From UHGV virus genome UHGV-0371537: 64,000 nt of DNA; one strand, written 5' to 3'. The DNA is from a virus. Positions 1 to 53,082 of this stretch are shown piece after piece (position 1 is the stretch's first letter; every line of letters starts with the position of its first letter). The position numbers and the translations under genes are program-made. The notes under the pieces are model-generated. The model saw only the letters and a program-made list of their open reading frames with translations, searched no databases and had not been told where the DNA came from.

Positions 1-841
1 ACCGGGATACGGGCTTGCAAGATCGGGTTGGTCACAACTCTGATGGCTCTGAACGTTCTTTTCACTAGTCATCCACAACTGATATTCGGATATCCAGAAC
101 CATCAGAGTTGCAGCCATGCTACAACCCGCATCTGGGTGAGGTTAAGGTGATCGACCCCAGACACTTGCCTGTTTCGCCAGGCCAAACGGTTTAGCGTCG
201 GGTGCCTCCCGATGCCATTATCATGGCGAATAATGGCGTTGACTTACCCTCAGGTGTTTCTTTGCCACTCAACCCTTGCGCTTAGCAGGATTCACCAAAC
301 AACCCGCACTTCAGTGTCTTCGTCACACTTCGGCACTTGTCCTCTACGCTCGGACCAAACGAGGCTGGCCGACAGAAACATAACACCACTCATCACTAGA
401 GCGAGGATGTGGTTGATAGCCACGATGCTATGCTTTGTCGAAGAGTGATCACACTTGTCAGGATGATCACTGTTTTGCAGTACCTGCCGCAAAGTGGAGT
501 CCTCTGAACTTCAATGACCCCTCATCTTGTACTATCGCCGCCGGGAACGTTCACATTGTGAATCAACCCTTGGGTTAAGTTCAACGTCCAGAGGACTCTA
601 CTTTGCGTTGTGGGGGCAAACCCCCACACGGCTACTTCTTTAACAGGGATTGCTAGCCCTGGGGATTCCACTGTTTAAGGCTTTATCCCATAACGCCTGA
701 GGCGTGTTTTAACTTATTGAAGCTTGCATAACTGCAAACTGATGTGGCTATGGGACACATCTGGGAGGACACTCCGTGGATTCATTTTACAGCATCCCGT
801 ATAGCGGATACCGACCTCGATCAAGTGCCCTCTCAGATGTC

Positions 842-880
842 GGCGGGAGCTTATTAATCACACCCTCCCGCCTATTTTTA
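842..880 (+). terminator. terminator-like hairpin in the ORF-poor region
   Basis: GGCGGGAG (842-849) pairs with CTCCCGCC (865-872), followed by TATTTTT. Confidence 0.35.
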
Positions 881-1752
881 GTGCGCCGAATTTTGTTATG
901 AGGAGTCGGAAGACCTCACTGGTTTATAGGCTATTACGCCGCCGCCAGAAATTCATCAGAGTTTGCATTTATCTTTGTGGTCTGTTTCTTAAAACCCGCA
1001 AAGCCGCAAGCAACGAGAACGAAAACCTGTTTGAGCACAAGACGCCATGTCCTGGGATCACATCGAAGTGTTTGTCTAGTGCCCAAACAGCTTTTCGTTC
1101 AGTGGGTTAACTATACTCTGCAACCCGTTATTGACAAAACCTTAAATTATTTCGCGGTGGTCGGAGTCTAACCGACAGCTGGTTGAGCGCAGAGTCCTAG
1201 GAGAAGGTGCTAACCCGACCATCACCAGCAAGCTTCGCACCGGAAGCCTTTCCTCGTCTGCCTATGTTCACACGCAGTCCGTGTGTACACCGCGATATAA
1301 TCTACCGGAACTTACGCATCCAGCCTCGCCTGTTGGTGCTCCTTCGAATCCGGGAAGATCAGCAGGAACTATGAATCAAGTTAATTCAACCAACAGGAAC
1401 CTTTGTGTTGCCCTTTGACGCAACATTATGAACCCTCTATGAAGACTCATAATGTTGTCGGCGTGATGGAGATTAGCGCCCCCCGACCTCCCCTATGTGT
1501 TGGTGTCGACTTGCCAACGGGGTGCTCTCTATTTCTGAGCTAATCACGCTACAACAGGGAGTTTCGTTCTCCGACGGTCAGTGCGTCCACTAACACCATG
1601 CAAGGTGGATGTCACGCCTCTATTCACAACGGTGTCCTGAGACTGGACTTTCCTGGTTTCTGGCCCCAACCATACTTCCACCGCGCTATTCGCCTCACGT
1701 TTAATACTTTACTGCAGTCCAGCTAATTTGAAAAGTCCTCTCCTCTTTGAGC

Positions 1753-1899
1753 TACACTGCCCACAGCAGTGCGGACGAACCTTCACTCAAAACCGGATGC
1801 GCCGAAGTGGGCGACTGTTCACCGGACTGATCGGGTAGACCCAGGAGAGTAAAGGTAATCCCGATCAGGAGGATGAGGAGCAACATCATGTAAAACATA
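1753..1899 (-). CDS. possible small hydrophobic membrane peptide (48 aa)
   Basis: ATG at fwd 1897-1899 with GGAGG-like SD about 7 nt upstream; hydrophobic N-terminus MFYMMLLLILLIGITFTLLGL; below ORF-track cutoff; 57 nt downstream of the 189-aa minus-strand gene. Confidence 0.25.
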
Positions 1900-1955
1900 G
1901 TGTTCCCTCCCTTCCATGCAACTAACTTTACTGCAATTATTTATTGAATAAAGCG

Positions 1956-6754: not shown

Positions 6755-9736
6755 ATGGCTAATAAACCAACACAGCCTGTTTTCCCTCTCGGTCTGGCGG
6801 CTGAAGAGCAGTCTACTTTGGCTGGTGTCCTCAACACGGGTACGATTGAGCATGGACCAGATGCTGTCCTGACTTTACCAGAGGGTAATGCCAGCGCAGG
6901 ACTCCCGTCTTCCGTTCGCTACAATGCCGACTCCGACGAATTTGAGGGCTTCTATGAAAATGGTGGATGGTTGCCGCTGGGTGGCGGTGGTATCCGCTGG
7001 GAAGTCCTTCCGCATGCCTCTACGGCAACGCTCACTGAAGGGCGAGGCTATCTCATTAATAATACCACAGGGGCATCTACAGTGGTTCTCCCTTCCCCTA
7101 CGCGTATTGGGGATTCCGTTACTATTTGTGATGCTTATGGGAAATTTGCCACTTACCCATTGACCGTGTCTCCTTCTGGAAATAATTTGTATGGCTCCAC
7201 TGAAGACATGGCTATAACAACTGATAACGTATCAGCAACGTTCACTTGGTCTGGACCTGAACAAGGTTGGATTATTACATCCGGCGTCGGTCTTGGCCAA
7301 GGTCGTGTCTACAGTCGTGAAATCTTTACAAAAATTTTGGCGTCTGAAACAAGTTCTGTCGCTCTCAATACTCCACCAACAATTGTGGACGTGTATGCTG
7401 ACGGAAAACGTCTTGCGGAATCCAAATATTCACTAGATGGGAATGTAATCACTTTCAGTCCTTCTTTGCCAGCCAACACAGAACTTCAGGTGATTGAATA
7501 TACTCCTATTCAATTGGGTAATGTCAGTGGTTCTGGTTCTTCTACGATTACCTGGGTCTATAATGGGGGTTCAGCGATTGGTGGTGAAACCGAAATCACG
7601 TTGGACGTCGTTGTTGATGATGTTCCGGCCATTGATATAAACGGAAGTCGCCAGTATAAAAATCTGGGATTCACATTCGATCCATTAACCAGTAAAATCA
7701 CTCTTGCGCAAGAACTGGAACCAGAGGATGAAGTTGTTGTAATTATCAATGGAACACCAAACATCTATAATCAAATTGATTATACTTTGCGGGAAGTTGC
7801 TCGAGCAACCAATGTTAAAGATACAGAGGTCGTTTATTTTAGTGTTGGTGCTGCGTTAAGTGGGTATAAAGTTATTTATGACAAGGAGACGCAAAGGGCT
7901 TATCCCTTGCCTGCTGATATTGTCCCTGGTACTACTGCTGTCAGTCTTAGTTCTTCCGCTATACTTGTGCATTCTGCTGGTAGTGTTGATCTGGGCGCAT
8001 TAGCTGTATCTCGTGAAGAATATGTTACATTGTCTGGGACATTTGATTCTGGTGCTGTCATCAATGTTAAAAATGAATTACTCACCCATACTGATGGAAA
8101 GTATCGTTGGGATGGTACACTTCCTAAAACCGTTGCTCCTGGCTCAACTCTTATGACAACAGGCGGCGTTGGTGTTGGCGCATGGATTAGTGTTGGTGAT
8201 GCTTCATTGAAGTCAGAATTGGCTAAACCTACAGGAGCAGGTTTTTCAGGTTTTGATAAGTCAATTGATTACGAAACTGGTACTGTTGGCAATGCGCTTA
8301 AGAAAATTATAAATGTCAACCCGGATATGTATCCATCATTACAGGATGCGATTGATGCTGCGGCAGCTTTAACAGGTTTAGAACATGCACCAAGTAGTGC
8401 TGCTAACCATCCTGACTGGCTACAACCTAACACTGTAAGCAAAGTTATCAGGCTGAATGGGAAGAAATATCCTATCAGTACGACACTACACATTCACGGA
8501 GATGTTAGCATTGATGCTGGTTTCGGTGGGGTGTACCTCACCGATGACTTCGTTGCAGACTCCTCTGGCTATGCTGTTAAATGCGATAAAGGGACGGGTA
8601 ATCAATACGCTGGGCATATCAGCAACTTATTAATTGATGCCCGTGCAAAAACTGTTAATGGGTTTAAGATATCCGATGGCTATGCTAACAAGTTAGAAGG
8701 CATTTACGTAGCCAACGTTGATGGTCATGGCATCCATATTGCTGGCGGTATGGGTGTGCACCTATTGAAGTTTTATGCTGTTGGTGTATTAAAACCAACT
8801 AATCCGCTCAGCACAGCCCACATTGTTGAAGGTAGCGATCATCAGGTTAGCATGGGTGAAGGTCGTTATTTCCGATTTGGTACCTGGGTTCGTGGTGGTG
8901 GTAATAACAGAATTGGTAAGGTGCACAACTGGGGCATGTATGACGATACAGTCACCGACCAGAACTCAAGGATGAAATGCTGCTTTGTTGTACAGAACTC
9001 AATAAACAATTCCTTCAATCAATGTTTTGCAGATTCTCCATCAAAATGGGACTACACGAAAGCTAATTTAGATCCTGTAGATGGTTATATTAACGGCGGG
9101 ATTGGTTTTTTTATTGATGGTGGAGCCACCGGTAATACGTTCTCTCAATGCCAGACGTTTGTGAATATGAATGCGTTTAATGACGCAGGGTTATCTGCAT
9201 ATGCGGCATCACTAATGCCATTCGCCGTTGGCAGTATCAATTGCTCATTCATTGAGTGTGAAAACTCAAACTCACCAGCATGGGTGGCAAGACTGATAAC
9301 TCATATTTACTCTGTGGATCAGGCATTTACTAACATACTCGCAGCTAAGAATTTTGTTGGTATAGAGTATGATATGGTTTGCAATGGTACAATTTTCAGG
9401 AAAAATGTTGGAGTTCCTGTATTGGTAAGAAATTCAAAGTTCGAGACGCCAACAGCAAGTTATGCGCCTAACTTTTCAGACGCATCTTACATCGCAGCTA
9501 CAGTTACAGGAGATGTAACAATAACACCAGCAGTATTAACAAATACACTAATTGGTTATGTTGAGGTTCTTTTGGCTGTCTATTCAACAACATCTAAAAC
9601 AATAACATTTGGTGCAAATGTTATATTAGCAAGTAGTACCCCATCTTTGACAGCAGCTGGAACACAAGTTTTTAGGTTGTCAACAACTGATGGAGGAACG
9701 ACTTGGTTCTGTAAGTTCGAGAGTGCTTACCCGTAA
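6755..9736 (+). CDS. tailspike protein, long form with N-terminal extension (TSP4-like)
   Basis: Internal anchor domain (aa ~350-510) paralogous to the N-termini of the 9839 and 15080 genes (VSREEYVTL, VKNELLTHT, KYRWDG); track start ATG 6725 lies in a hairpin loop, ATG 6755 follows the CTAAATA motif and hairpin. Confidence 0.8.
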   Translation: MANKPTQPVFPLGLAAEEQSTLAGVLNTGTIEHGPDAVLTLPEGNASAGLPSSVRYNADSDEFEGFYENGGWLPLGGGGIRWEVLPHASTATLTEGRGYLINNTTGASTVVLPSPTRIGDSVTICDAYGKFATYPLTVSPSGNNLYGSTEDMAITTDNVSATFTWSGPEQGWIITSGVGLGQGRVYSREIFTKILASETSSVALNTPPTIVDVYADGKRLAESKYSLDGNVITFSPSLPANTELQVIEYTPIQLGNVSGSGSSTITWVYNGGSAIGGETEITLDVVVDDVPAIDINGSRQYKNLGFTFDPLTSKITLAQELEPEDEVVVIINGTPNIYNQIDYTLREVARATNVKDTEVVYFSVGAALSGYKVIYDKETQRAYPLPADIVPGTTAVSLSSSAILVHSAGSVDLGALAVSREEYVTLSGTFDSGAVINVKNELLTHTDGKYRWDGTLPKTVAPGSTLMTTGGVGVGAWISVGDASLKSELAKPTGAGFSGFDKSIDYETGTVGNALKKIINVNPDMYPSLQDAIDAAAALTGLEHAPSSAANHPDWLQPNTVSKVIRLNGKKYPISTTLHIHGDVSIDAGFGGVYLTDDFVADSSGYAVKCDKGTGNQYAGHISNLLIDARAKTVNGFKISDGYANKLEGIYVANVDGHGIHIAGGMGVHLLKFYAVGVLKPTNPLSTAHIVEGSDHQVSMGEGRYFRFGTWVRGGGNNRIGKVHNWGMYDDTVTDQNSRMKCCFVVQNSINNSFNQCFADSPSKWDYTKANLDPVDGYINGGIGFFIDGGATGNTFSQCQTFVNMNAFNDAGLSAYAASLMPFAVGSINCSFIECENSNSPAWVARLITHIYSVDQAFTNILAAKNFVGIEYDMVCNGTIFRKNVGVPVLVRNSKFETPTASYAPNFSDASYIAATVTGDVTITPAVLTNTLIGYVEVLLAVYSTTSKTITFGANVILASSTPSLTAAGTQVFRLSTTDGGTTWFCKFESAYP

Positions 9737-9740
9737 AACT

Positions 9741-9766
9741 AACCCCCTCTTCGGCAGGGTTCTTGT
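9741..9766 (+). terminator. degenerate copy of the AACCCCGCTTCGGCGGGGTT terminator
   Basis: AACCCCCTCTTCGGCAGGGTT immediately after the tailspike stop at 9736. Confidence 0.35.
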
Positions 9767-9798
9767 TATACCTTTGTTCATAAATTTATTAGTTCAGC

Positions 9799-9834
9799 CT
9801 AAATACCCCATATTGGTCATCCTTTATGGGGTAT
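9799..9834 (+). promoter_or_regulatory. late-promoter-like CTAAATA plus 9-bp hairpin covering the SD region
   Basis: ATACCCCAT (9803-9811) pairs with ATGGGGTAT (9826-9834); ATG 9839. Confidence 0.5.
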
Positions 9835-9838
9835 TATC

Positions 9839-11788
9839 ATGATTTCTCAATTCAATCAACCACGCGGCTCCACTTCCATAGAAGTTAACAAACAATCTAT
9901 CGCTCGAAATTTCGGTGTCAAAGAAGACGAAGTCGTTTATTTCACTGCTGGTATTGATCTCAGTGGATTTAAAGTAATTTATAATGAGTCTACCCAACGG
10001 GCTTATTCTCTTCCTTCAGGTATTGTTTCAGGAACGACTGCTGTTAGTCTTAGTGCTAACGCTGTTCTTATGCACTCAGCTGGTTCTATAGACCTCGGAG
10101 AATTAGCCGTATCTCGTGAAGAATACGTTACATTGCCTGGGTCATTCACCTCGGGTGCTACGCTTAATGTTAAAAATGAATTGCTTACCCATACAACAGG
10201 CAAGTATCGCTGGGACGGGGAATTTCCTAAAACCGTTTCTGCAGGTTCTACCCCTGAATCTGCTGGTGGTGTTGGTCCTAGTGCGTGGGTTAGTGTTGGT
10301 GTTGCTTCTTTAAGAGCAGACCTGGAAAAACCAACAGGGGCAGGATTGATTGGATTTGGCTGTTCTCCATATATAAATAGAAATATTGGAGATGTTCTCC
10401 AGGATATACCAACGAACAAATATTTTGGTGCAAAGTGTGATGGCGTAACTGATGATACTGTAGCTAACCAAACTGCACTTGATTGGTCTGCTGACAATAA
10501 AAGAGATGTTATTTTTGTTGGAAAAAGCTGCATAACAAGCAGACTTGTACACAATTCAGGCTCCAGGGTAACACATCTTGGAGAGATCAAACCTCGTGAT
10601 TTTTCTGATGATGTTGTTATTGAGGTAAAGGACGATGCGTGGCGTGATCCTTACAATGATGGAATAACAGCAATCGATACTGGCGATAGAGTTCATATTG
10701 ATGGTCTATGTATTGCCCCTGACTCTGTAATAGATGCTGTTGGTATTCTTGGCACTGATGGAGTGGATCCGATCATATCAAGATTAAGAACATTCAACAT
10801 GAGAAGGGGAGGAATTAAGATTGTTAAGGGGTATGGATGGAACATATCAAACATTTCAATCATTGCACCTTTTGATCAAAATAACTCTCATGATTATGCA
10901 GGAATTAGGCATGAAACGTCAGATTCATTTTATTCTAGCGTTATAGTTTCAGGATATACTACTGGACTTGATATGCCTGGAAATGCTAATCAAGTATCAA
11001 AGGCCCACTGCTGGGGAATGTCATTACCAGATAGAACCACTCGTAATATGTTATTCGGCCTTAAAATGAGCGGTAGTGGTAATAACGTAGTGCAATTCTA
11101 TTCTGATTCTCCTAAAAAAATTGATAAAACACAAGCTGCAAGCATTACAAATGGTGGGATTGGCTATGTAATTTCTGGTTTTAACAACACATTTTTATCA
11201 CCTAGGAACCTATCTCATCAGGATTGTGGCTTGAAATATGGTAAGGTTTTTCTGATATCTGGTTCTGAGAATACCTTTATTAGCCCCTTAATAGGTGATT
11301 ATGACTACATTGAAGATGATGGATTTTTCACATTTACAGATTCGGCAAGCCCGCTAAACAACTATGTTTATGGTGGCAACATGCAATCTACATATTTGTA
11401 CCCAATTGCAAGTGGTAGCTATAAACCAACTGTAAACATCCCATGCACATACAGCTCTCAAATATATAACCATAATATCATTCAGAAAAATGTTATGGGA
11501 AGAGTTGTTATTACATGCAATATTACAAGTAATTCATCCGACGATCCATTCTATATACAACTGCCACCTTATCTATCAGCTGTATCTGGGATGGCAAGTG
11601 GATCAATAATTAACAACCTTACATCGTCAGTAAGAGCTGATAGCAACCTTTTTGCAGTCGAACCTTATGTTTCAAATGGTAAAATCTACTTCCGTAGATT
11701 ATTTAGATCTGGAGCTGCTGATGATATAAAGCAAAATATGCTTAACACAGGTAATGCTTTCTTTGATATATCAATAAATGCAAGATAA
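9839..11788 (+). CDS. tailspike protein, short form (TSP3-like)
   Basis: N-terminal anchor domain shared with the other three tailspike genes; 649 aa. Confidence 0.8.
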   Translation: MISQFNQPRGSTSIEVNKQSIARNFGVKEDEVVYFTAGIDLSGFKVIYNESTQRAYSLPSGIVSGTTAVSLSANAVLMHSAGSIDLGELAVSREEYVTLPGSFTSGATLNVKNELLTHTTGKYRWDGEFPKTVSAGSTPESAGGVGPSAWVSVGVASLRADLEKPTGAGLIGFGCSPYINRNIGDVLQDIPTNKYFGAKCDGVTDDTVANQTALDWSADNKRDVIFVGKSCITSRLVHNSGSRVTHLGEIKPRDFSDDVVIEVKDDAWRDPYNDGITAIDTGDRVHIDGLCIAPDSVIDAVGILGTDGVDPIISRLRTFNMRRGGIKIVKGYGWNISNISIIAPFDQNNSHDYAGIRHETSDSFYSSVIVSGYTTGLDMPGNANQVSKAHCWGMSLPDRTTRNMLFGLKMSGSGNNVVQFYSDSPKKIDKTQAASITNGGIGYVISGFNNTFLSPRNLSHQDCGLKYGKVFLISGSENTFISPLIGDYDYIEDDGFFTFTDSASPLNNYVYGGNMQSTYLYPIASGSYKPTVNIPCTYSSQIYNHNIIQKNVMGRVVITCNITSNSSDDPFYIQLPPYLSAVSGMASGSIINNLTSSVRADSNLFAVEPYVSNGKIYFRRLFRSGAADDIKQNMLNTGNAFFDISINAR

Positions 11789-11791
11789 ATA

Positions 11792-11822
11792 AGTAGAGCA
11801 GCAACATGATTGCTGCTCTACT
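11792..11822 (+). terminator. perfect 12-bp hairpin after the tailspike stop
   Basis: AGTAGAGCAGCA pairs with TGCTGCTCTACT around a 7-nt loop; weak T-tract. Confidence 0.4.
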
Positions 11823-11834
11823 TTCTCATACAAC

Positions 11835-11978
11835 CTAATTGAAGTTAGTGGGTATATTACAGGAGGTAAAATATTCTTTAGAAGGTTATTCAGAAGCGGC
11901 TCTCCTGTTGATGTTCAGATAACAGATCTGATAACAGGTTATGCATCAATAGACTTGAGCTTTACTTGCCAGCTATAA
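11835..11978 (+). pseudogene. vestigial C-terminal fragment of a tailspike gene
   Basis: Translates to EVSGYITGGKIFFRRLFRSGSPVDVQITDLITGYASIDLSFTCQL*, homologous to the last ~45 aa of the 9839-11788 tailspike (core GKI(F/Y)FRRLFRSG 11 of 12 identical) but divergent at DNA level; no start codon. Confidence 0.6.
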
Positions 11979-11983
11979 ACAAA

Positions 11984-12010
11984 AACCCCGCTTCGGCGGG
12001 GTTAGTTTTA
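11984..12010 (+). terminator. rho-independent terminator (AACCCCGC-TTCG-GCGGGGTT)
   Basis: 8-bp GC-rich stem with TTCG loop followed by T-rich tail. Confidence 0.7.
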
Positions 12011-23959: not shown

Positions 23960-24676
23960 CTAAATACCTTCAAACGTATTTCTGATAAATTCGATAATAC
24001 GACTTTCATGTTTAAACCATTCAGTCGCACCGTCAAATCCCTTGTAGTTCATACTAAATGACATTTCATGAGCCTTTCTTTCCAGTTCTAACACGAATTG
24101 TCCATCATTTGACTTAAAAACTTCTAGAACATTGAACTCAAATGGAGTTGATCTTCTTAAAGATTTAAATCTATTATTTGGTGAATTGGACACCCCGATT
24201 TTCATACAGCCTTCTTCGCTGGTCAATATGTACAAATAACCGACTTTAAAAGGATTGTATCCGGAAGTTGCGCAGTAGGGGCACCAACTTTTACCATTCA
24301 CCAAATTACAGTATCTTGACTCCCAACGATGTCCTTCTGAACATTCCATAAGGCAAACTGTCACATTATCTTTATACTTTCCACCAATAAATTCTATGAA
24401 TTTACCACCGTTGGTTTCAGCATGGTCGGTTATTCTCTTTTTAGATTCTTGCTGGGTATTTCTCTTGTTGCCATTACATGTTGGGCACCAACTGCCTTTA
24501 TTGATCAAATTTCCATAAGATGCTGAACTCCATTGATGCCCTTCACCACACTGTAATATACATTTTGTCTGATTAGTGATAAATTTATCACCAACGAATC
24601 CCTGGAACAAACCACCTTTAGATAAGGCATATTTGTGAAGATTTTGAATAGCAGTTTCTTCTGTCAGGATTTTCAT
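23960..24676 (-). CDS. T5orf172 (GIY-YIG superfamily) domain protein with two N-terminal zinc ribbons; homing-endonuclease-like
   Basis: Two repeats C-x4-C..GH.W....C.L.N.KSWCP.C then GYLYIL....MKIGVSN....R..SLRR.....EWF, typical of T5orf172/MUG113; opposite strand between two neck genes. Confidence 0.65.
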   Translation of the reverse strand: MKILTEETAIQNLHKYALSKGGLFQGFVGDKFITNQTKCILQCGEGHQWSSASYGNLINKGSWCPTCNGNKRNTQQESKKRITDHAETNGGKFIEFIGGKYKDNVTVCLMECSEGHRWESRYCNLVNGKSWCPYCATSGYNPFKVGYLYILTSEEGCMKIGVSNSPNNRFKSLRRSTPFEFNVLEVFKSNDGQFVLELERKAHEMSFSMNYKGFDGATEWFKHESRIIEFIRNTFEGI

Positions 24677-24733
24677 ATTATCTAACCTTTAACAATATTC
24701 AACTAAATATATTTAAATCCTGAGGAATAGATC

Positions 24734-25384
24734 ATGGCCACTTCTCGATATTTTAACTACACCAATCACCAAGGCACGCAGAAGCTGATTGAAGATTTGG
24801 TGCAAGAAATGATTCAATTGCGTGGGATAGACATCAAGTATATACCACGTTCCATCGTTGAAAAATTTCCTATCACCAACGATGCCAACCACCGTTTCGA
24901 CCAGGCGTTCGACATCGAAGCGTACATGCAGGATTACCAGGGCTTCAACACCCAGATGTGGGAGAAGTTCGGGGGCATCCAACTGCAGGACGAAGTCACG
25001 TTCTCTATATCTCGCCGTCGATTTTCTGAAGTGATTGGTAACGGCGTTGGCCTGGAGCAACAGCCTCAAGAAGGTGATTTGATCTATCTGCCTCTAGCGA
25101 ACAAGATCTTCAAGGTTAACAACCCGAACAATGATGAAGACTTCATGCAGTTCGGGAAATGGTACACCTATTCTCTACCATGCACGTTGTTCCAGTATGG
25201 CAACGAGAACTTCGACACAGGCATGCCCGAGATTGATGACATCGATAAGCGCTTGTCTATCCTGGATGAGGAAGAGGAACCGGGCGTGTATAAAGATTCG
25301 TCTCTTCAGACAGACAATGCTCAGGCCGATACGTTGGAGCAAGGTCTTGCACCAGACAATCTGAAGATTGATTTTGGAGATTAA
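24734..25384 (+). CDS. gp14: neck protein, T4 gp14-like
   Basis: EGDLIYLP and YTYSLPC motifs as in T4 gp14; synteny gp13-gp14-gp15. Confidence 0.75.
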   Translation: MATSRYFNYTNHQGTQKLIEDLVQEMIQLRGIDIKYIPRSIVEKFPITNDANHRFDQAFDIEAYMQDYQGFNTQMWEKFGGIQLQDEVTFSISRRRFSEVIGNGVGLEQQPQEGDLIYLPLANKIFKVNNPNNDEDFMQFGKWYTYSLPCTLFQYGNENFDTGMPEIDDIDKRLSILDEEEEPGVYKDSSLQTDNAQADTLEQGLAPDNLKIDFGD

Positions 25385-35838: not shown

Positions 35839-37161
35839 ATGGCTAAGAAACTTGTAACCGAAGAAATGCGCAAAGAGTGGCTGCCTGTTCTTCAAAAAGA
35901 ATCTGAACAGATCCAGCCTCTGTCTGCCGAAAACGTCGCTGTCCGTCTCCTGGAAAACCAGGCTGAGTGGAACGCCAAAAACCTGGGTGAATCCGAAGCC
36001 CCTGGCTCTCTGAACAACACTGTCGGTAAATGGCAGCCAGTTCTGATTGACATGGCTAAACGTCTGGCTCCGATCAACATCGCGATGGACTTCTTCGGCG
36101 TTCAGCCGCTGTCTGGTCCTGACGGTCAGATCTTCGCACTGCGTGCTCGCCAGGGCGTTGCAGATAGTTCCAACACCGCGCAGTCTCGTAAAGAACTGTT
36201 CATGCAGGAAGCTGATTCCGGCTACTCTGGTGACGGTACTGTACAGGCTGGCGACCCATCTGGCTTTACCCAGGCTGAAATCGAAGGTTCCGGCGCTGGT
36301 ACAACCACCATCGGTAAAGGTATGCCAAGCACCGACGCTGAACTGCTGGGTACTACCACCAACCCATGGGCGCGTGTTGGTATCACCGTGCAGAAAGCTA
36401 CCGTGACTGCGAAGTCTCGCGGCCTGTACGCTGACTACAGCCATGAGCTGCGCCAGGACATGATGGCGATTCACGGCGAAGACGTGGACAGCATCCTGTC
36501 TGACGTGATGGTCACTGAAATTCAGGCGGAAATGAACCGTGAGTTTATCCGCACCATGAACTTCAGCGCAGTACGCTTCAAAAAATTCGGCGCAAACGGC
36601 ATCGTGGACATCTCCACCGATATCTCCGGTCGTTGGGCTCTGGAAAAATGGAAGTACATGACTTTCATGCTGGAAGTTGAAGCGAACGGTATCGCCGTTG
36701 ACACCCGTCGTGGTAAAGGGAACCGTGTTCTGTGTTCTCCGAACGTAGCATCTGCCCTGGCGATGTCCGGCATGCTGGATTACGCTCCGGCGCTGCAGGA
36801 AAACACCAAGCTGGCGATCGACCCAACTGGCCAGACCTTCGCTGGTGTTCTGTCTAACGGCATGCGCGTTTACATCGACCCGTATGCAGTAGCAGAGTAC
36901 ATCACCCTGGCATACAAAGGCGCGACCGCGCTGGATGCTGGTATCTTCTTCGCGCCGTATGTGCCGCTGGAAATGTACCGCACCCAGGGTGAAACCACCT
37001 TCAGCCCACGTATGGCGTTCAAGACCCGCTACGGGATTTGTGCTAACCCATTCGTTCAGATCCCAGCGAACCAGGATCCACAGGTCTATGTGACTGCGGA
37101 TGGTATCGCCCAGGACAGCAACCCTTACTTCCGTAAAGGGTTAATAAAAGGCCTGTTTTAA
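35839..37161 (+). CDS. gp23: major capsid protein, T4 gp23-like
   Basis: GVQPLSGPDGQIFALRA, KTRYGICANPF and C-terminal YFRKG resemble T4 gp23; ATG 35839 preferred over 35830 on SD spacing. Confidence 0.9.
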   Translation: MAKKLVTEEMRKEWLPVLQKESEQIQPLSAENVAVRLLENQAEWNAKNLGESEAPGSLNNTVGKWQPVLIDMAKRLAPINIAMDFFGVQPLSGPDGQIFALRARQGVADSSNTAQSRKELFMQEADSGYSGDGTVQAGDPSGFTQAEIEGSGAGTTTIGKGMPSTDAELLGTTTNPWARVGITVQKATVTAKSRGLYADYSHELRQDMMAIHGEDVDSILSDVMVTEIQAEMNREFIRTMNFSAVRFKKFGANGIVDISTDISGRWALEKWKYMTFMLEVEANGIAVDTRRGKGNRVLCSPNVASALAMSGMLDYAPALQENTKLAIDPTGQTFAGVLSNGMRVYIDPYAVAEYITLAYKGATALDAGIFFAPYVPLEMYRTQGETTFSPRMAFKTRYGICANPFVQIPANQDPQVYVTADGIAQDSNPYFRKGLIKGLF

Positions 37162-37190
37162 TAATTAAAACAATGGCTTACGTCCTAACA

Positions 37191-37220
37191 AACCCCGCTT
37201 CGGCGGGGTTTTTGTTTGTT
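37191..37220 (+). terminator. rho-independent terminator after the major capsid gene, third exact copy
   Basis: AACCCCGCTTCGGCGGGGTT followed by TTTGTTTGTT. Confidence 0.75.
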
Positions 37221-37268
37221 CATAATACCAAACAGGTTATACTAGATACCATACGAAGGAGAACAATT

Positions 37269-38741
37269 ATGTATCAGGTAATCTGTAGTGTCTGTCATGA
37301 ACAGTTCAAAGCATCCAGGAAAGATAAGAAATTTTGTTCAGATGGTTGTAAAACGTTTTCTAGCAACACATTGAAAAATCTATCACCGGAATTTGTTGCT
37401 GATGCGACGTGCCTTTCGGATGAAGAATCTTATCGTCAATTTTTCCATAAACACATGTTCACTAAGAACAATAAATTGGATATTCAGAAATGCAAATCTA
37501 ATTTGTTAATGAAGCACATCAGATTGGACCTGTTGATATTTGCCAACGCCCATAACACCCTACAAGATCTGGCCTGTAAAGTCACAGCATGGTTACACAA
37601 TAGAACCGTGAAAATGTGCCCTGTGTGTTCCAAAGAAACCAACTTTTACATCAATGACAAAGATTACAGAACATATTGTTCCGAAGAATGTTATCAGATT
37701 TCTATGTGTAAAGGCGGGGTTGGTCGGAAAGCTATAGAGGCTTCAAATATATCCAAATATGGGAGCTGCTCTACACTACAACTACCTGGTGTGAGGAAGA
37801 AGGCGTTGATAACATTACAAGAACGTTATGGTGTTGACAATCCCATGAAAAACTCGATCATATTGAAACGTGCATTGTTTAACAATGGTTCTGTCAGGAA
37901 TAAGAAATCTTCTTATGAAAAAGAAATATCCGAGTTCCTCACCTCAATAGGAGTTGTGAACAAGGTTTCTAATTACAGTATATTGTCAGGCAAACAATTG
38001 GATATCTACTGCCCGGAACACAAACTTGCAATAGAATTCAATGGGTTGTACTGGCATTCAGAAGTTTTTAAAGAAAAACGGTATCATCTAGAAAAGACTG
38101 AAATGTGTGAATCTCAGGGTATCCAGTTGATCCATATTTGGGAAGACGAATGGGCTGAGAAACAGGATGTGGTCAAATCTCTTCTGAAGGCAAAACTCGG
38201 CATTAAAACGCCTGTCTCATACGCTCGCCAACATAAAGTTGTTTGGGGTAATATAAACGGTGTGAGGGAGTTTCTAGACGCCCATCATATACAAGGTTCC
38301 GTGTCGTCCACCCACCACTTATCGCTAATTGATAAGGCTGGTGTGATACAGGCCGTGATGTTGTTTACCAAAAGGAAAGATGGCCTGGAATTAGTCAGAT
38401 TTGCCTCTAATGATTGCCACGGGGCGTTCAGTAAACTTCTATCGCACTTCAGAAGGAAATTTGTTGGTGTCCCAATCTATTCTTTTGGCGACAGGTGTGT
38501 CGTAAGCAGGCTGTCGAACATTTACCTATCCCACAGGTTCATAGAAGAGGAAGTACAGAAGCCGGATTACAAATATCACAAGCCTGGTACATTTATGCGT
38601 GAGCACAAGTTCGGTTTCAGAAAAGATTCATTTGCTCGGATGGGTTATGACATAGAAGGCAAAACAGAAAGCCAGTTAGCAACCGAAGCCGGGCTGGTCA
38701 GGATTTGGAATTGTGGTCTGATCAAATATACCTTGAACTAA
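37269..38741 (+). CDS. freestanding homing-endonuclease-like protein with zinc fingers and a Vsr-like PD-(D/E)xK domain
   Basis: LAIEFNGLYWHSE matches the Vsr/DUF559 signature; CxxC/CxxxC clusters at the N-terminus; track start 37173 would read through the terminator at 37191. Confidence 0.65.
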   Translation: MYQVICSVCHEQFKASRKDKKFCSDGCKTFSSNTLKNLSPEFVADATCLSDEESYRQFFHKHMFTKNNKLDIQKCKSNLLMKHIRLDLLIFANAHNTLQDLACKVTAWLHNRTVKMCPVCSKETNFYINDKDYRTYCSEECYQISMCKGGVGRKAIEASNISKYGSCSTLQLPGVRKKALITLQERYGVDNPMKNSIILKRALFNNGSVRNKKSSYEKEISEFLTSIGVVNKVSNYSILSGKQLDIYCPEHKLAIEFNGLYWHSEVFKEKRYHLEKTEMCESQGIQLIHIWEDEWAEKQDVVKSLLKAKLGIKTPVSYARQHKVVWGNINGVREFLDAHHIQGSVSSTHHLSLIDKAGVIQAVMLFTKRKDGLELVRFASNDCHGAFSKLLSHFRRKFVGVPIYSFGDRCVVSRLSNIYLSHRFIEEEVQKPDYKYHKPGTFMREHKFGFRKDSFARMGYDIEGKTESQLATEAGLVRIWNCGLIKYTLN

Positions 38742-50893: not shown

Positions 50894-52093
50894 ATGAAAG
50901 ATAAAGCCCTGGACGTCCCGTACTGCGGTGTCCGCGAAGAAAAGATAAAGTCGGCCAAACCGGTTCTCAGTCCGACCCATACCCGCCTGTCTTATGACTG
51001 GATGAGCGAGCGCTATAAGATCCACGTTCGAAAGGACGTCCAGCGTCTTCCTGCTCCTTGGACGAATAATCCTATACTACGGCAGGTCAAGTTCTGTAAC
51101 GTCCGGAGAGAGCACGACAGGCAGTCTCTTAACCTGATCAACAACATCGTCAACAACGATGCTCTGGGTATGGCAGACAAGATGTTTAACTGCGTGCTGT
51201 TCCGCATGTTCAACCTCTGGGATCCGATCCAGGCTATCGGCGGCGCGATGACGATCAAAGAATTCGCCAAGATTAATCTTGACGCAACCCGTGAACGACT
51301 TCAGAAGTTCGAGGCTGACGGTGGTAAGGTATTCACCAATGCCTTCAACACAGGCGGCCTGAAGCAATGCCTGGCTTTCCCTGAGATGGTTGTCAACCAC
51401 AAGGAGCAGCTCTTCGGTGGGATGATGGTGAAAGTGTATCGCGTTGGCCAGGGTATTGTGGACGAGATGGACTACAAGGTCGCCAAGAAGCTGGTCGAAG
51501 AGAATCCTGGTGAATATACCATCGAGGGATGGGAACCGTACATGCCAATGCGTGTCATCCGTTCCCTGAAGGCATTCGTCAACAAGTATCCAAATTACTT
51601 CCATGACCTGCTGCGCCTTGGTACTCCTCTGGAAGTATACCAGCGCATGTACGACGACATCGAAGGGCTTGGTCCATTCCTGGCTTATCAGATCTGGGTG
51701 GACTTCACGTACATTCCTGAGTATCCGTTTAGTGAGAACCACTTCACGGTTGCTGGACCAGGCTGTCGTGCAGGCATCGACCTGATGTTCCTGAACAAAG
51801 ACGGTATGACCCACGAAGAATGCATCTTCTGGTTACGGGACAACCAGGACGCAGTGTATTCCCAATATGGATATGTTCGTGAGCAATTCTGGTCTGCGGA
51901 AGAGCCTTGGGATCAGTGTATGAATGTTCAACAATTAGAAAACCACTTTTGTGAATTGTCGAAATATACCCGTTGTGTAGAGGCTTTACAGCAAGGTAAA
52001 AAACCGCGCGGGAAGGTTGGATACGATGGGGAAGGACAACCTAAAGCGGCGACATCTGGTTCTAAAAACCTACTAAATTTATTTAAAAAGTAA
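50894..52093 (+). CDS. hypothetical protein (399 aa)
   Basis: Long ORF; no motif recognised by eye. Confidence 0.5.
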   Translation: MKDKALDVPYCGVREEKIKSAKPVLSPTHTRLSYDWMSERYKIHVRKDVQRLPAPWTNNPILRQVKFCNVRREHDRQSLNLINNIVNNDALGMADKMFNCVLFRMFNLWDPIQAIGGAMTIKEFAKINLDATRERLQKFEADGGKVFTNAFNTGGLKQCLAFPEMVVNHKEQLFGGMMVKVYRVGQGIVDEMDYKVAKKLVEENPGEYTIEGWEPYMPMRVIRSLKAFVNKYPNYFHDLLRLGTPLEVYQRMYDDIEGLGPFLAYQIWVDFTYIPEYPFSENHFTVAGPGCRAGIDLMFLNKDGMTHEECIFWLRDNQDAVYSQYGYVREQFWSAEEPWDQCMNVQQLENHFCELSKYTRCVEALQQGKKPRGKVGYDGEGQPKAATSGSKNLLNLFKK

Positions 52094-52152
52094 CTTACTT
52101 TGTGAGTTAAGAAAGTATATTATAACAGGAACTTTCATTTGGAGTTCCTGTT

Positions 52153-53082
52153 ATGTTTTACGAATTATTGATTTCTAAAGGCGGTAAACCGCATTTTATC
52201 AAGAAGTATTTGAGGATGGTTCAATCTTTCAAATATTCTGATAGTGACTACACTGAATTACACCACATCCTTCCCAAGAGCATGTTCCCTGAATATTCTA
52301 AAGATAAGATAAATTTGGTTCGATTAACAGGCAGACAACATTATCTTGTCCATGTATGCTTGGCCTTGGCTTTCCCAAACACGAGAATGGTGTATGCTGT
52401 TGTAGCTATGAGAAAGGGAGGAAGAAGAAATAAATCAGGTATTCGGTTTAATTCTCATTTGTATGAAAGTTTCAGAATTAAATTCAGCGAACAACTATCT
52501 TTACAATGGAAAGGGGTTTCTCGGTTTGTGGGTAAAGACAACCCAATGTATGGGAGAAGAGGAAAGAATAATCCCCAATATGGGTATAAGAGAACTCCAG
52601 AGCAAGTCAAGAAAATTACCAAAGGATTGATGAAAATCCATGAAAGGATGGCTTCTGATCCGGAATATAAAAGAGAAGTTTTAGAGCAGCGTCGTACCAA
52701 TACGGATTTAAAGCAATTTTCTGAGCGTTCCCGCCAAGCAAAACTCGGTGAACTCAATCCTAATTATGGGAAGGACTTAACCAACTCTTTCACACCGGAA
52801 CAACGCGCCAAACAGAAAGAAAACGCTCAGAAAGGCATGTTGGCTAAGATGCCTTGGGAGAAGGGTAAATGGAACCCCGACAATGACGTATATTGGGAGA
52901 AAGCTGATCAATTCCTTGAAGCCCTGAATACGATGAAACGTTCAGAAGCCCTCTTGTTCGTGTATGGAACAAAAGATCTGAAGGCGTTTAATGCCACCAG
53001 TGGGATAATCGAACGTTTCAATAAAGGCTGGGAACCATTAAAATGCGTAAAATGGTTAAAAAGATATAAGGGTGAAAAATGA
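52153..53082 (+). CDS. HNH homing endonuclease
   Basis: ELHHILPKSMFPEYSKDKINLVRLTGRQHYLVH is an HNH core; repeated NP.YG(R/K) NUMOD-like motifs. Confidence 0.7.
   Translation: MFYELLISKGGKPHFIKKYLRMVQSFKYSDSDYTELHHILPKSMFPEYSKDKINLVRLTGRQHYLVHVCLALAFPNTRMVYAVVAMRKGGRRNKSGIRFNSHLYESFRIKFSEQLSLQWKGVSRFVGKDNPMYGRRGKNNPQYGYKRTPEQVKKITKGLMKIHERMASDPEYKREVLEQRRTNTDLKQFSERSRQAKLGELNPNYGKDLTNSFTPEQRAKQKENAQKGMLAKMPWEKGKWNPDNDVYWEKADQFLEALNTMKRSEALLFVYGTKDLKAFNATSGIIERFNKGWEPLKCVKWLKRYKGEK

Follow-up and report, generated by a model that had tools for sequence, protein, structure and literature searches.

The window analysed here, the whole 64,000-nucleotide (nt) stretch of the virus genome UHGV-0371537, opens with 1,955 nt in which hardly any open reading frame (ORF) is found, and the question is what, if anything, positions 1-1955 encode. 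The original prediction had noted GC-rich hairpins in this region and had offered three options: non-coding RNAs with structure, a locus for regulation or for replication or packaging, or several very small genes clustered together. Of these, the first was right: comparison with other phages and structure models point to several conserved structured RNA genes on the minus strand beside a transfer RNA (tRNA) cluster. On balance we favour the reading that positions 1-1955 are a minus-strand array of non-coding RNA genes which extends the tRNA cluster and includes an RNA resembling the body of transfer-messenger RNA (tmRNA), with a translated tag. We read the region as neither decayed nor empty DNA, and we are confident that the tmRNA-like RNA belongs to a real, structured and widespread family. 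All features described below lie on the minus strand unless a strand is given, and coordinates written with an arrow run in the direction of the transcript.

The identities of these RNAs came from comparison across phages. Rfam and tRNA scans, which had been proposed as a check, gave nothing at curated thresholds: in the whole 64 kb no Rfam family reached its gathering score and no tRNA was called by ARAGORN. Comparison with relatives, proposed at the same time, yielded conserved blocks, covariation and homologues in unrelated phages. In a distant BLAST search with the whole region as query, the segment ~880-1008 matched unannotated DNA of unrelated phages at 74-84% identity. It belongs to an RNA of ~185 nt (842-1027) that resembles the body of tmRNA. 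The 5' end of the element carries the motif GGUUUUCG, and the putative resume codon GCA (966-964) follows directly on AUAAAU. It opens a frame of 10 codons with no start (966->937) for the tag ANSDEFLAAA, and the stops UAA UAG (936->931) lie in the loop of hairpin H5 (948->919). Two pseudoknots come next, A (918->886) and B (885->842), the latter with the conserved loop AUUAAUAA. The core reads ...AAAGAUAAAU GCA AAC UCU GAU GAA UUU CUG GCG GCG GCG UAA UAG...

Copies were gathered by BLAST and by a pattern fixing TAAATGCAAAC and TGATTAATAA. A dedicated search found the element in 702 of 50,697 phage records from five virus families, at 74-93% identity; the taxa checked were Ackermannviridae, Ounavirinae (Felixounavirus wV8), Schitoviridae (SP-058), Drexlerviridae (CS01) and Hendrixvirinae (HK633). 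In IMG/VR, at least 120 loci matched the exact pattern. By megablast, 147 of 5,426 complete Escherichia coli genomes carried the element, always on the chromosome and never annotated. When one genome per species was scanned with the pattern, seven true copies were found, all in Enterobacterales, together with 26 chance matches; the 'tags' of these chance matches are of random length, so they serve as a negative control.

When the loci of wV8, SP-058, CS01 and HK633 are turned to the orientation of the window, their neighbouring genes and tRNAs are all on the minus strand. The wV8 copy lies inside a tRNA cluster, and that of the lambdoid phage HK633 between Q/pR' and the holin gene. ARAGORN placed a tRNA no more than 700 nt away in about 40 of 125 loci, on the same strand every time. 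In SP-058 (NC_021772.1) the RefSeq tRNA coordinates were ~1136 nt off the ARAGORN positions in the same sequence. A strong sigma-70-type promoter (TTGACA-N17-TAGATT or TATAGT) ended 7-12 nt before GUUUUC in 30 of 101 distinct contexts, versus none of 108 control segments. Since the promoter adjoins the element in those contexts, the RNA would start at the element there, and no 5' acceptor strand would be possible upstream. In the window, the sigma-70-type promoter TTGTCA-N16-TATAGT (1110-1137) stands before the tmRNA-like module and is conserved in Kuttervirus, Agtrevirus, Taipeivirus and Limestonevirus.

The structure was examined in an alignment of 98 sequences and 254 columns, in which six helices with 26 pairs were specified; the partner strand slid by 1-3 columns and 500 shuffles were used as controls. 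In the alignment 94.5% of cells were paired, versus 27-44% in the slid controls. Both sides had changed in 17 of the 26 pairs, and compensatory cells numbered 263, versus at most 39 after sliding. None of the 500 shuffles reached the observed value on four of five measures; for further pair types, 8 of 500 did. A blind ranking by mutual information recovered the same helices. Hairpin H5 is built in two parts with the stop codons in its loop, and its outer stem had changed on both sides in four of four pairs. In pseudoknot A, UGAGG pairs with CCUCA and the loop bases CCGA with a downstream UCGG, while pseudoknot B consists of CGCACU/GGUGUG crossed by the GC-rich stem at 842-872. Across both pseudoknots, three of the four stems were 99-100% paired and 12 of 19 pairs had changed on both sides. 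The 14-nt loop of pseudoknot B is conserved across phage families; the search pattern itself fixed 10 of the 14 bases, and the variable ones covary. The loop pairs with the upstream CGCACU, and three pair types were seen at each of two positions. No pseudoknot upstream of the tag, in the place of tmRNA pseudoknot 1, was resolved by mutual information in the 98-sequence alignment.

The GC-rich stem had been noticed before as the hairpin GGCGGGAG...CTCCCGCC followed by TATTTTT. As a plus-strand terminator it probably does not serve; on the minus strand it is stem 2 of the pseudoknot, and unrelated phages conserve its loop GGUGUGAUUAAUAA. An intrinsic terminator or cis-regulatory hairpin at 842-880 was also considered and rejected, as on the minus strand the stem has no U-run after it, and the loop is both conserved and paired.

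Is the tag frame read? It was exactly 10 codons long and closed by a stop in every one of the 98 distinct copies, and its peptide follows A-N-[DES]-x-x-x-[LRK]-x-[AV]-A. Other phages have ANEEMYLAVA, ANDDVVLMAA, ANDNVFLAVA and similar tags, all of them close to ANDENYALAA of E. coli. Entropy at the three codon positions was 0.56, 0.45 and 0.95. Pairs of copies that differ by one base showed 13-14 synonymous versus 6 non-synonymous changes, with 23% of the possible changes being synonymous. The five other frames gave synonymous to non-synonymous ratios from 2:12 to 8:10 and contained stops in most copies. Those on the antisense strand over the tag, with stops in most of the 98 copies, accounted for 4:16, 8:10 and 2:16. 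The closest relative, pSal-SNUABM-02, reads GCU AAU GAU UCC GAA GUU CUG AUG GCG GCG UAA UAG, in which the change of the otherwise invariant GCA AAC to GCU AAU is synonymous and keeps Ala-Asn. The tag frame has thus been selected at the level of the peptide.

In most copies an in-frame UAG lies eight codons upstream, no AUG, GUG or UUG precedes GCA and there is no Shine-Dalgarno sequence, so that the frame is not an ordinary ORF but has the anatomy of a tmRNA resume frame. The bases U(-5) and A(-4) before the resume codon (AUAAAU before GCA) were fixed by the search pattern; pSal-SNUABM-02, found without the pattern, keeps both in AUAAUC before GCU. The equivalent bases of E. coli tmRNA, U85/A86, are the main determinant of the frame (PMC2481249). 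Two other ORFs were considered and rejected. One, from the AUG inside AAAUGCAAAC, varied in length from 4 to 11 codons and its substitutions were not biased to synonymous ones; the other, an antisense ORF of 70 amino acids at 898-1110 on the plus strand that is annotated in some records, was free of stops within Ackermannviridae only. The tag frame shows purifying selection at the codon level and is hence probably translated, and on this codon-level evidence translation of the tag is the most likely reading.

A tmRNA is defined as a tRNA-mRNA hybrid, and the phage element resembles the mRNA part. The likeness lies in a start-less frame with GCA AAC at its opening, L-x-[AV]-A at its close and one or two stops thereafter, in U(-5)/A(-4), in stops within a covarying loop like that of helix 5, and in pseudoknots after the tag. 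Moreover, the element is restricted to phages of Enterobacterales, whose own tmRNA tag is ANDENYALAA. It differs from tmRNA in its length of ~185 nt versus 363 nt, in having two pseudoknots after the tag versus three, and in being transcribed, as far as its sequence context indicates, from its own promoter or inside phage tRNA clusters. Of five Rfam tmRNA-type models with hits, four gave sub-threshold matches to the tag and pseudoknot part of the copies tested, with 11-26 bits; the best scores were 26.3 (tmRNA_permuted), 24.9 (alpha_tmRNA), 16.6 (RF00023) and 16.3 bits (beta_tmRNA), and the gathering scores of 47-84 were not reached. In one Felix-like copy ARAGORN reported a 'resume consensus' and the tag ANDNVFLAVA, followed by two stops. 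In ~125 loci it made one tmRNA call, a 'permuted' one stitched together from distant true tRNAs.

To our knowledge, every known functional tmRNA has both halves, and the known reduced forms keep the tRNA half only. A census of tmRNA in 2014 listed phage tmRNAs in mycobacteriophages and Bacillus phage G only, plus a molecule of mycobacteriophage DS6A that consists of the tRNA-like domain alone (PMC4131195). Together with the reduced tmRNAs of jakobid mitochondria (PMC3590771), DS6A offers a parallel in truncated tmRNA relatives of phages and organelles and indicates that half-molecules can be maintained; the element described here keeps the opposite half.

The element is absent from Rfam 15 and receives no annotation from PGAP; in GenBank it carries occasional hypothetical ORFs only, on the wrong strand. 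The searchable literature held no earlier description of it, and its tag peptides occurred in no paper. Its closest known category is that of the small stable RNAs beside phage tRNA genes, such as T4 rnaC and rnaD ('species 1 and 2'), which likewise lie on the same strand beside a phage tRNA cluster with a homing endonuclease. These are not homologous: nhmmer gave no hit in the T4 tRNA region, no tag-like frame was seen on reading, and rnaC has a T-arm. We know of no function assigned to rnaC and rnaD over several decades.

Several points weigh against an array with a translated, tmRNA-like tag. No tmRNA was called by ARAGORN in the window or in the first seven loci fetched, and no acceptor stem, T-arm, G3.U70 or CCA end of the tmRNA type was found in the element, nor G3.U70 in the flanking hairpins. 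Canonical trans-translation depends on a tRNA-like domain charged with alanine, so that no established mechanism exists for using the tag in the way proposed. Conservation is high in the 5' third of the element (GGUUUUCG...GCGACUUUGCGGGUUUUUAGAAACUGACC), and mutual information gave only mutually inconsistent pairs there. The pattern-based collection inflates the apparent invariance of its two fixed motifs, leaving covariation and tag length unaffected. Part of the tag lies in the H5 stem, where RNA structure also constrains the codons. In the rest of the array, an RNA of ~440 nt that we call RNA-A shows slight covariation (11 of 103 pairs) because its sequences are so similar, and the copy of the small RNA STnc100 in the window, scoring below the gathering score, is a diverged relative and not a member by score. 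Finally, expression, RNA ends and processing are all inferred from sequence.

Other candidates for a tRNA-like part were also tried. A closing helix of GUGCUCUU...AAGAGCA, comparable to helix 2 of tmRNA, was rejected, its strands belonging to separate hairpins each with a compensatory stem of its own (loci L073 and L050). Hairpins that could be read as tRNA acceptor stems ending in NCCA numbered 10 in a scan of the window, versus 4.2 +/- 2.2 in shuffles and 8 on the plus strand, a weak excess. In Ackermannviridae, such stems run to 12-16 bp, and what looks like a 'CCA' is part of the stem; the candidate at 1545/1471 was not conserved. For an antisense duplex between the element and ssrA of E. 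coli, the energies were no better than those of shuffles (z = +1.3, -2.9 and -0.3).

How could such an RNA act? Host RNA polymerase would start at the sigma-70-type promoters, including the one at 1137->1110, and processing of the transcript into small stable RNAs would probably occur at the long hairpins that bracket the modules and, farther along, at the tRNAs. Ribosomes would translate the tag frame in a resume-type event like that of trans-translation, and rescued nascent chains would receive a phage-specified C-terminal tag in place of the host ANDENYALAA. The structure of the RNA, the selection on its tag peptide, the promoters and the spread of the family are shown by the data; we infer resumption, the source of the tRNA-like function and the role of the tag. 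Candidates for that function would be host tmRNA-SmpB, an ordinary Ala-tRNA reading GCA in the empty A site, or a neighbouring tRNA-like module. It is possible, and we suggest it tentatively, that phages of Enterobacterales encode a tmRNA devoid of the tRNA-like half and that ribosomes stalled in infection resume on this RNA as a free-standing template, whereby tags ending in LAAA, LMAA or LAVA replace the host degron. The alanine would then be supplied by host tmRNA-SmpB or an ordinary Ala-tRNA, or else the template would enter the empty mRNA channel directly. If this were true, ribosome rescue and the fate of proteins would be reprogrammed in a new way, and templates could be switched on the ribosome without a covalent tRNA-like domain.

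We are more doubtful that the RNA is a decoy which is never translated and which mimics the tmRNA body to bind and titrate a factor recognising it, for instance ribosomal protein S1, RNase R, contacts of SmpB close to the resume codon or some host defence that monitors tmRNA; that host trans-translation is thereby damped or redirected during infection seems to us open to the same doubt. A decoy needs no fixed 10-codon frame, and it leaves unexplained both the synonymous bias, including GCA AAC to GCU AAU, and the constant [AV]-A C-terminus, even though the absence of a tRNA-like domain would suit it and the features kept, namely U(-5)/A(-4), stops in the H5 loop and pseudoknots, are contacts of ligands. 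It has a precedent of reverse truncation in the tRNA-like-domain molecule of DS6A; Hudson et al. 2014 (PMC4131195) note that a similar molecule is a strong inhibitor of tmRNA, which may act through titration of SmpB. As noted above, no significant pairing with ssrA of E. coli was found. A decoy of this kind would be a new class of phage inhibitor against trans-translation.

That the element is the coding piece of a split tmRNA, with its acceptor piece in an adjacent co-transcribed tRNA-like module or in an unprocessed 3' tRNA-like end, we consider unlikely. Natural two-piece tmRNAs exist, and the permuted model of Rfam gave the best of the sub-threshold scores. T-arm hairpins lie directly upstream in loci L014, L025 and L050, and tRNA-like pieces stand beside many copies. 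In SP-058 (L007), the T-arm UUAGG-UUCAACU-CCUAA lies ~86 nt upstream of the tag, and its loop (GGUUCAACUCC) is the same as the T-loop in the tmRNA of E. coli; neither a complete tRNA nor a complete tmRNA was called at this site. Yet no tRNA-like partner is common to all lineages, and the partners are without G3.U70, any G.U being at 4:69; neither ARAGORN nor the Rfam tRNA model called them. The flanking hairpins of Ackermannviridae have 12-16 bp stems and no free CCA end, and in L073 and L050 the strands of the hairpins pair with each other, not with the coding piece.

Two kinds of tRNA-like module contribute to this idea. In dinky (L001, ~670-800 on the minus strand), KP6F1 and IME250, the tmRNA-like element is followed by a tRNA-like element of ~125 nt, GCCGUUA...GGGUUCGACUCCC...AAACGGC-U-CCA. 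It has an acceptor-like stem, a T-arm, an encoded CCA and a long insert, and ARAGORN makes no call on it; it could be a relative reduced to the tRNA-like domain or an intron-bearing tRNA relative. Its place after the element in dinky and Taipeivirus would agree with a split molecule, as would the hairpins after the element in lambdoid prophages, with their 7-bp stems and UCCG tails.

In lambdoid prophages the element lies in an array beginning after the terminator downstream of pR'. The units of this array follow the form CAGGU, then AAGAGCA-(44-111 nt)-UGCUCUU, then UCCG; their interiors vary, and some contain a T-arm (loci L004, L008, L010, L014, L025, L042, L050 and L073). The 7-bp stem was perfect in 38 of 42 distinct units and the UCCG tail was present in 30 of 41, and many compensatory variants occurred (AAGCUGC/GCAGCUU, AAUUGCA/UGCAAUU, AAGGUAA/UUAUCUU and others). 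In appearance the units are like the acceptor ends of tRNAs, and they could be sites of RNase P. A second conserved module (GUUGUGGUGAAUGCGCAGGCUGAUGCGC...) follows the tmRNA-like one in lambdoid loci. None of the modules of the lambdoid array is in Rfam.

That the region is a collection of tRNA or protein genes in decay, or else a DNA locus acting in cis (a replication origin, a packaging site or a terminal repeat), is very improbable: mosaic content between genera, tRNA-like fragments, inserted homing-endonuclease genes and the records of dinky, kage, barely and Se_AO1 that start inside the region would fit it, but blocks are 87-88% identical between genera versus 70-79% in the flanks, the tmRNA-like block is common to unrelated phage families, helices show compensatory changes and strand-specific G.U pairs, the start points differ between phages and so mark no common terminus, and nothing was found in support of the replication or packaging locus proposed earlier, no origin-type repeats or iterons having been noticed, with no dedicated repeat scan run.

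The family as a whole is common and conserved, has promoters of its own and consists of the mRNA-and-pseudoknot half only, and its tag frame evolves like a translated peptide. Some phages depend on trans-translation. If the tag is used, phages would rewrite the outcome of ribosome rescue, and the need for a covalently linked tRNA-like domain would have to be revisited. Whichever reading holds, an unannotated RNA gene is present in more than 700 sequenced phages; among them are Felix O1-like phages and Ackermannviridae, two groups that are used for biocontrol and therapy, as well as prophages found in pathogenic E. coli. The 'empty' DNA next to phage tRNA clusters, and that downstream of the late promoters of lambdoid phages, seems to be made up of RNA genes in modular arrays.

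Protein coding in positions 1-1955 was re-examined. The four ORFs of 64-78 amino acids listed in the original prediction were found again at 212-448 (plus, 78 amino acids), 292-492 (minus, 66), 898-1110 (plus, 70) and 977-1171 (plus, 64), as were stops in all frames. Among 21 ORFs of at least 35 amino acids in the region, none was kept as an ORF in distant relatives except one of 48 amino acids, so that of the proposed cluster of very small genes this mini-ORF alone remained. Its description as a hydrophobic minus-strand ORF preceded by a Shine-Dalgarno sequence held, with GGAGGG as that sequence and with coordinates shifted by one base to 1752-1898. It is free of stops in Det7 and dinky, with 88-92% amino acid identity. 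The N-terminal transmembrane segment is kept at the protein level (MFYMMLLLILLIGITFTLLG versus MTIIALLLILIIGMAFTLLG in Taipeivirus) through conservative and synonymous changes. The gene is annotated as orf00219 in Ag3 and as gene 201 in Det7.

The hairpins reported at 609-626, at 693-705 with a T-tract, at 842-872 and at 1461-1549 were all present, and the inverted repeat at 1461-1549 forms a helix GCGUGAU/AUCACGC that encloses further helices. In 200-nt windows the mean z score of folding energy was -2.15 for the minus and -1.81 for the plus strand, versus -1.0 for neighbouring coding DNA. Energies were systematically lower on the minus strand, as expected if G.U pairs form there. The region folds better than shuffled sequence; the decisive evidence is comparative and not that of a single sequence. 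The GC hairpins at 693-712 and 609-626 are terminator-like when read on the plus strand (ACGCCUGAGGCGU, then a U-run) but not when read on the minus. Ag3 and Det7 preserve the stems and differ at loop and wobble positions; these hairpins could stop convergent plus-strand transcription or act both ways.

The window was compared block by block with seven other Ackermannviridae, in which the gap appeared as a mosaic of conserved blocks. Block A (1958->1305) was 73-93% identical in all but Limestonevirus, and the stretch 1305->1152 differed from phage to phage. Block B (1152->839), which contains the tmRNA-like RNA, was 87-88% identical even in Taipeivirus, where the flanks reached 70-79%. Block C (838->602) occurred in some phages only, and different modules take its place in others. 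Block D (369->1) was 70% identical in Taipeivirus, and short cores of it were kept even in LIMEstone1.

Downstream of the mini-ORF lies RNA-A (1300-1745), with a predicted fold of multiple helices that includes the inverted repeat at 1461-1549. It was compared in 22 distinct sequences, all on contigs of 154-161 kb, and was found in Ackermannviridae only, with long invariant runs. The RNAalifold consensus (-86.8) has 103 pairs, almost none of them broken and 11 with compensatory change; many G.U pairs are possible on the minus strand only. RNA-A contained no ORF and had no match in Rfam.

Long hairpins follow. T0 (1027-1090), after the promoter at 1137->1110, has a 12-bp stem CUGUUUGGGCAC/GUGCUCAAACAG around ~38 nt (12-13 bp across Ackermannviridae); in Det7 the stem is CUGUUUGAGUCCU/AGGACUCAAACAG, fully compensatory relative to the window. 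T1 (758-839), with a 16-bp stem CAUCUGAGAGGGCACU/AGUGUCCUCCCAGAUG around ~50 nt, is the same hairpin in Ag3 and Det7, and different bracketed modules occupy its position in other Ackermannviridae. A hairpin at 488-607 has a stem of ~21 bp and an interior of ~63 nt; a miRNA model matched it on both strands as a generic long hairpin. The array ends, ahead of the tRNA genes, with a hairpin at 34-112 with a 13-bp stem GCAACUCUGAUGG/CCAUCAGAGUUGU, and the segment 39->1 is 92% conserved even in LIMEstone1.

Within block D, positions 125-339 hold the diverged relative of STnc100 (RF02076). The match in the window (300->190) scored 32.9 bits (E = 6.7e-5, model positions 30-148) against a gathering score of 47. 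The homologous block of the Taipeivirus phages KP6F1 and IME250 scored 49.7 and 48.7 bits over model positions 1-206, above the gathering score. Lambdoid gene order would put the STnc100 site of Stx2 phages in the late operon, after Q/pR' and ahead of the lysis genes; it is there that HK633 has its tmRNA-like element. STnc100 is found 75 nt downstream of the stx2 operon in Stx2 phages (PMC12370729). The block at ~339->125, homologous to that of Taipeivirus, is a diverged relative of the STnc100/PasD prophage RNAs (RF02076; bioRxiv 10.64898/2026.05.13.724894; PMC12370729) but, unlike the copies of temperate phages, it sits in a virulent myovirus.

The window is, by its sequence, that of an Agtrevirus-like Ackermannviridae phage. 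BLAST of positions 1-2600 matched 259 phage records in all, and pSal-SNUABM-02, P46FS4, Ag3 and SKML-39 of the Agtrevirus group were ~92% identical. The order is gp6 (baseplate wedge, plus strand), an ORF of 189 amino acids (minus), the gene-poor gap and the tRNA cluster (minus), and the same layout was found in Agtrevirus, Kuttervirus, Taipeivirus and Limestonevirus, where the gap measures 1.5-2.7 kb and has few or no annotated genes. In Ag3 the nearest tRNA, tRNA-Ser, lies ~180 bp to the left of the position equivalent to window position 1. The 189-amino-acid ORF (1956-2525) separates the baseplate genes from the RNA array in all Ackermannviridae phages examined and is annotated as a hypothetical protein (VOG3125 in dinky).

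An HNH endonuclease gene lies inside the region in pSal-SNUABM-02 and PMBT18. In pSal-SNUABM-02 (L002, 5041-5517, equivalent to window ~1015-1027) and PMBT18 (H22), this free-standing homing-endonuclease gene is found exactly at the 5' edge of the tmRNA-like element, and the motif GGUUUUCGUUUUCG is duplicated, with one copy on each side of the insertion. Homing endonucleases are likewise found within the tRNA and small-RNA clusters of wV8 and T4. The Kuttervirus records that start or end inside the region do so each at a different place (in window coordinates, dinky at ~270, kage at ~1096 and barely at ~1015, with Se_AO1 elsewhere), and these ends may be due to opening of the record or breaks in assembly, rather than true genome termini. 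Elsewhere in the window, islands of low G+C content (0.37-0.41 versus a background of ~0.50) were seen at 9001-12000, 24001-25000, 37001-38000 and 52001-53000, and may be recently acquired or mobile genes.

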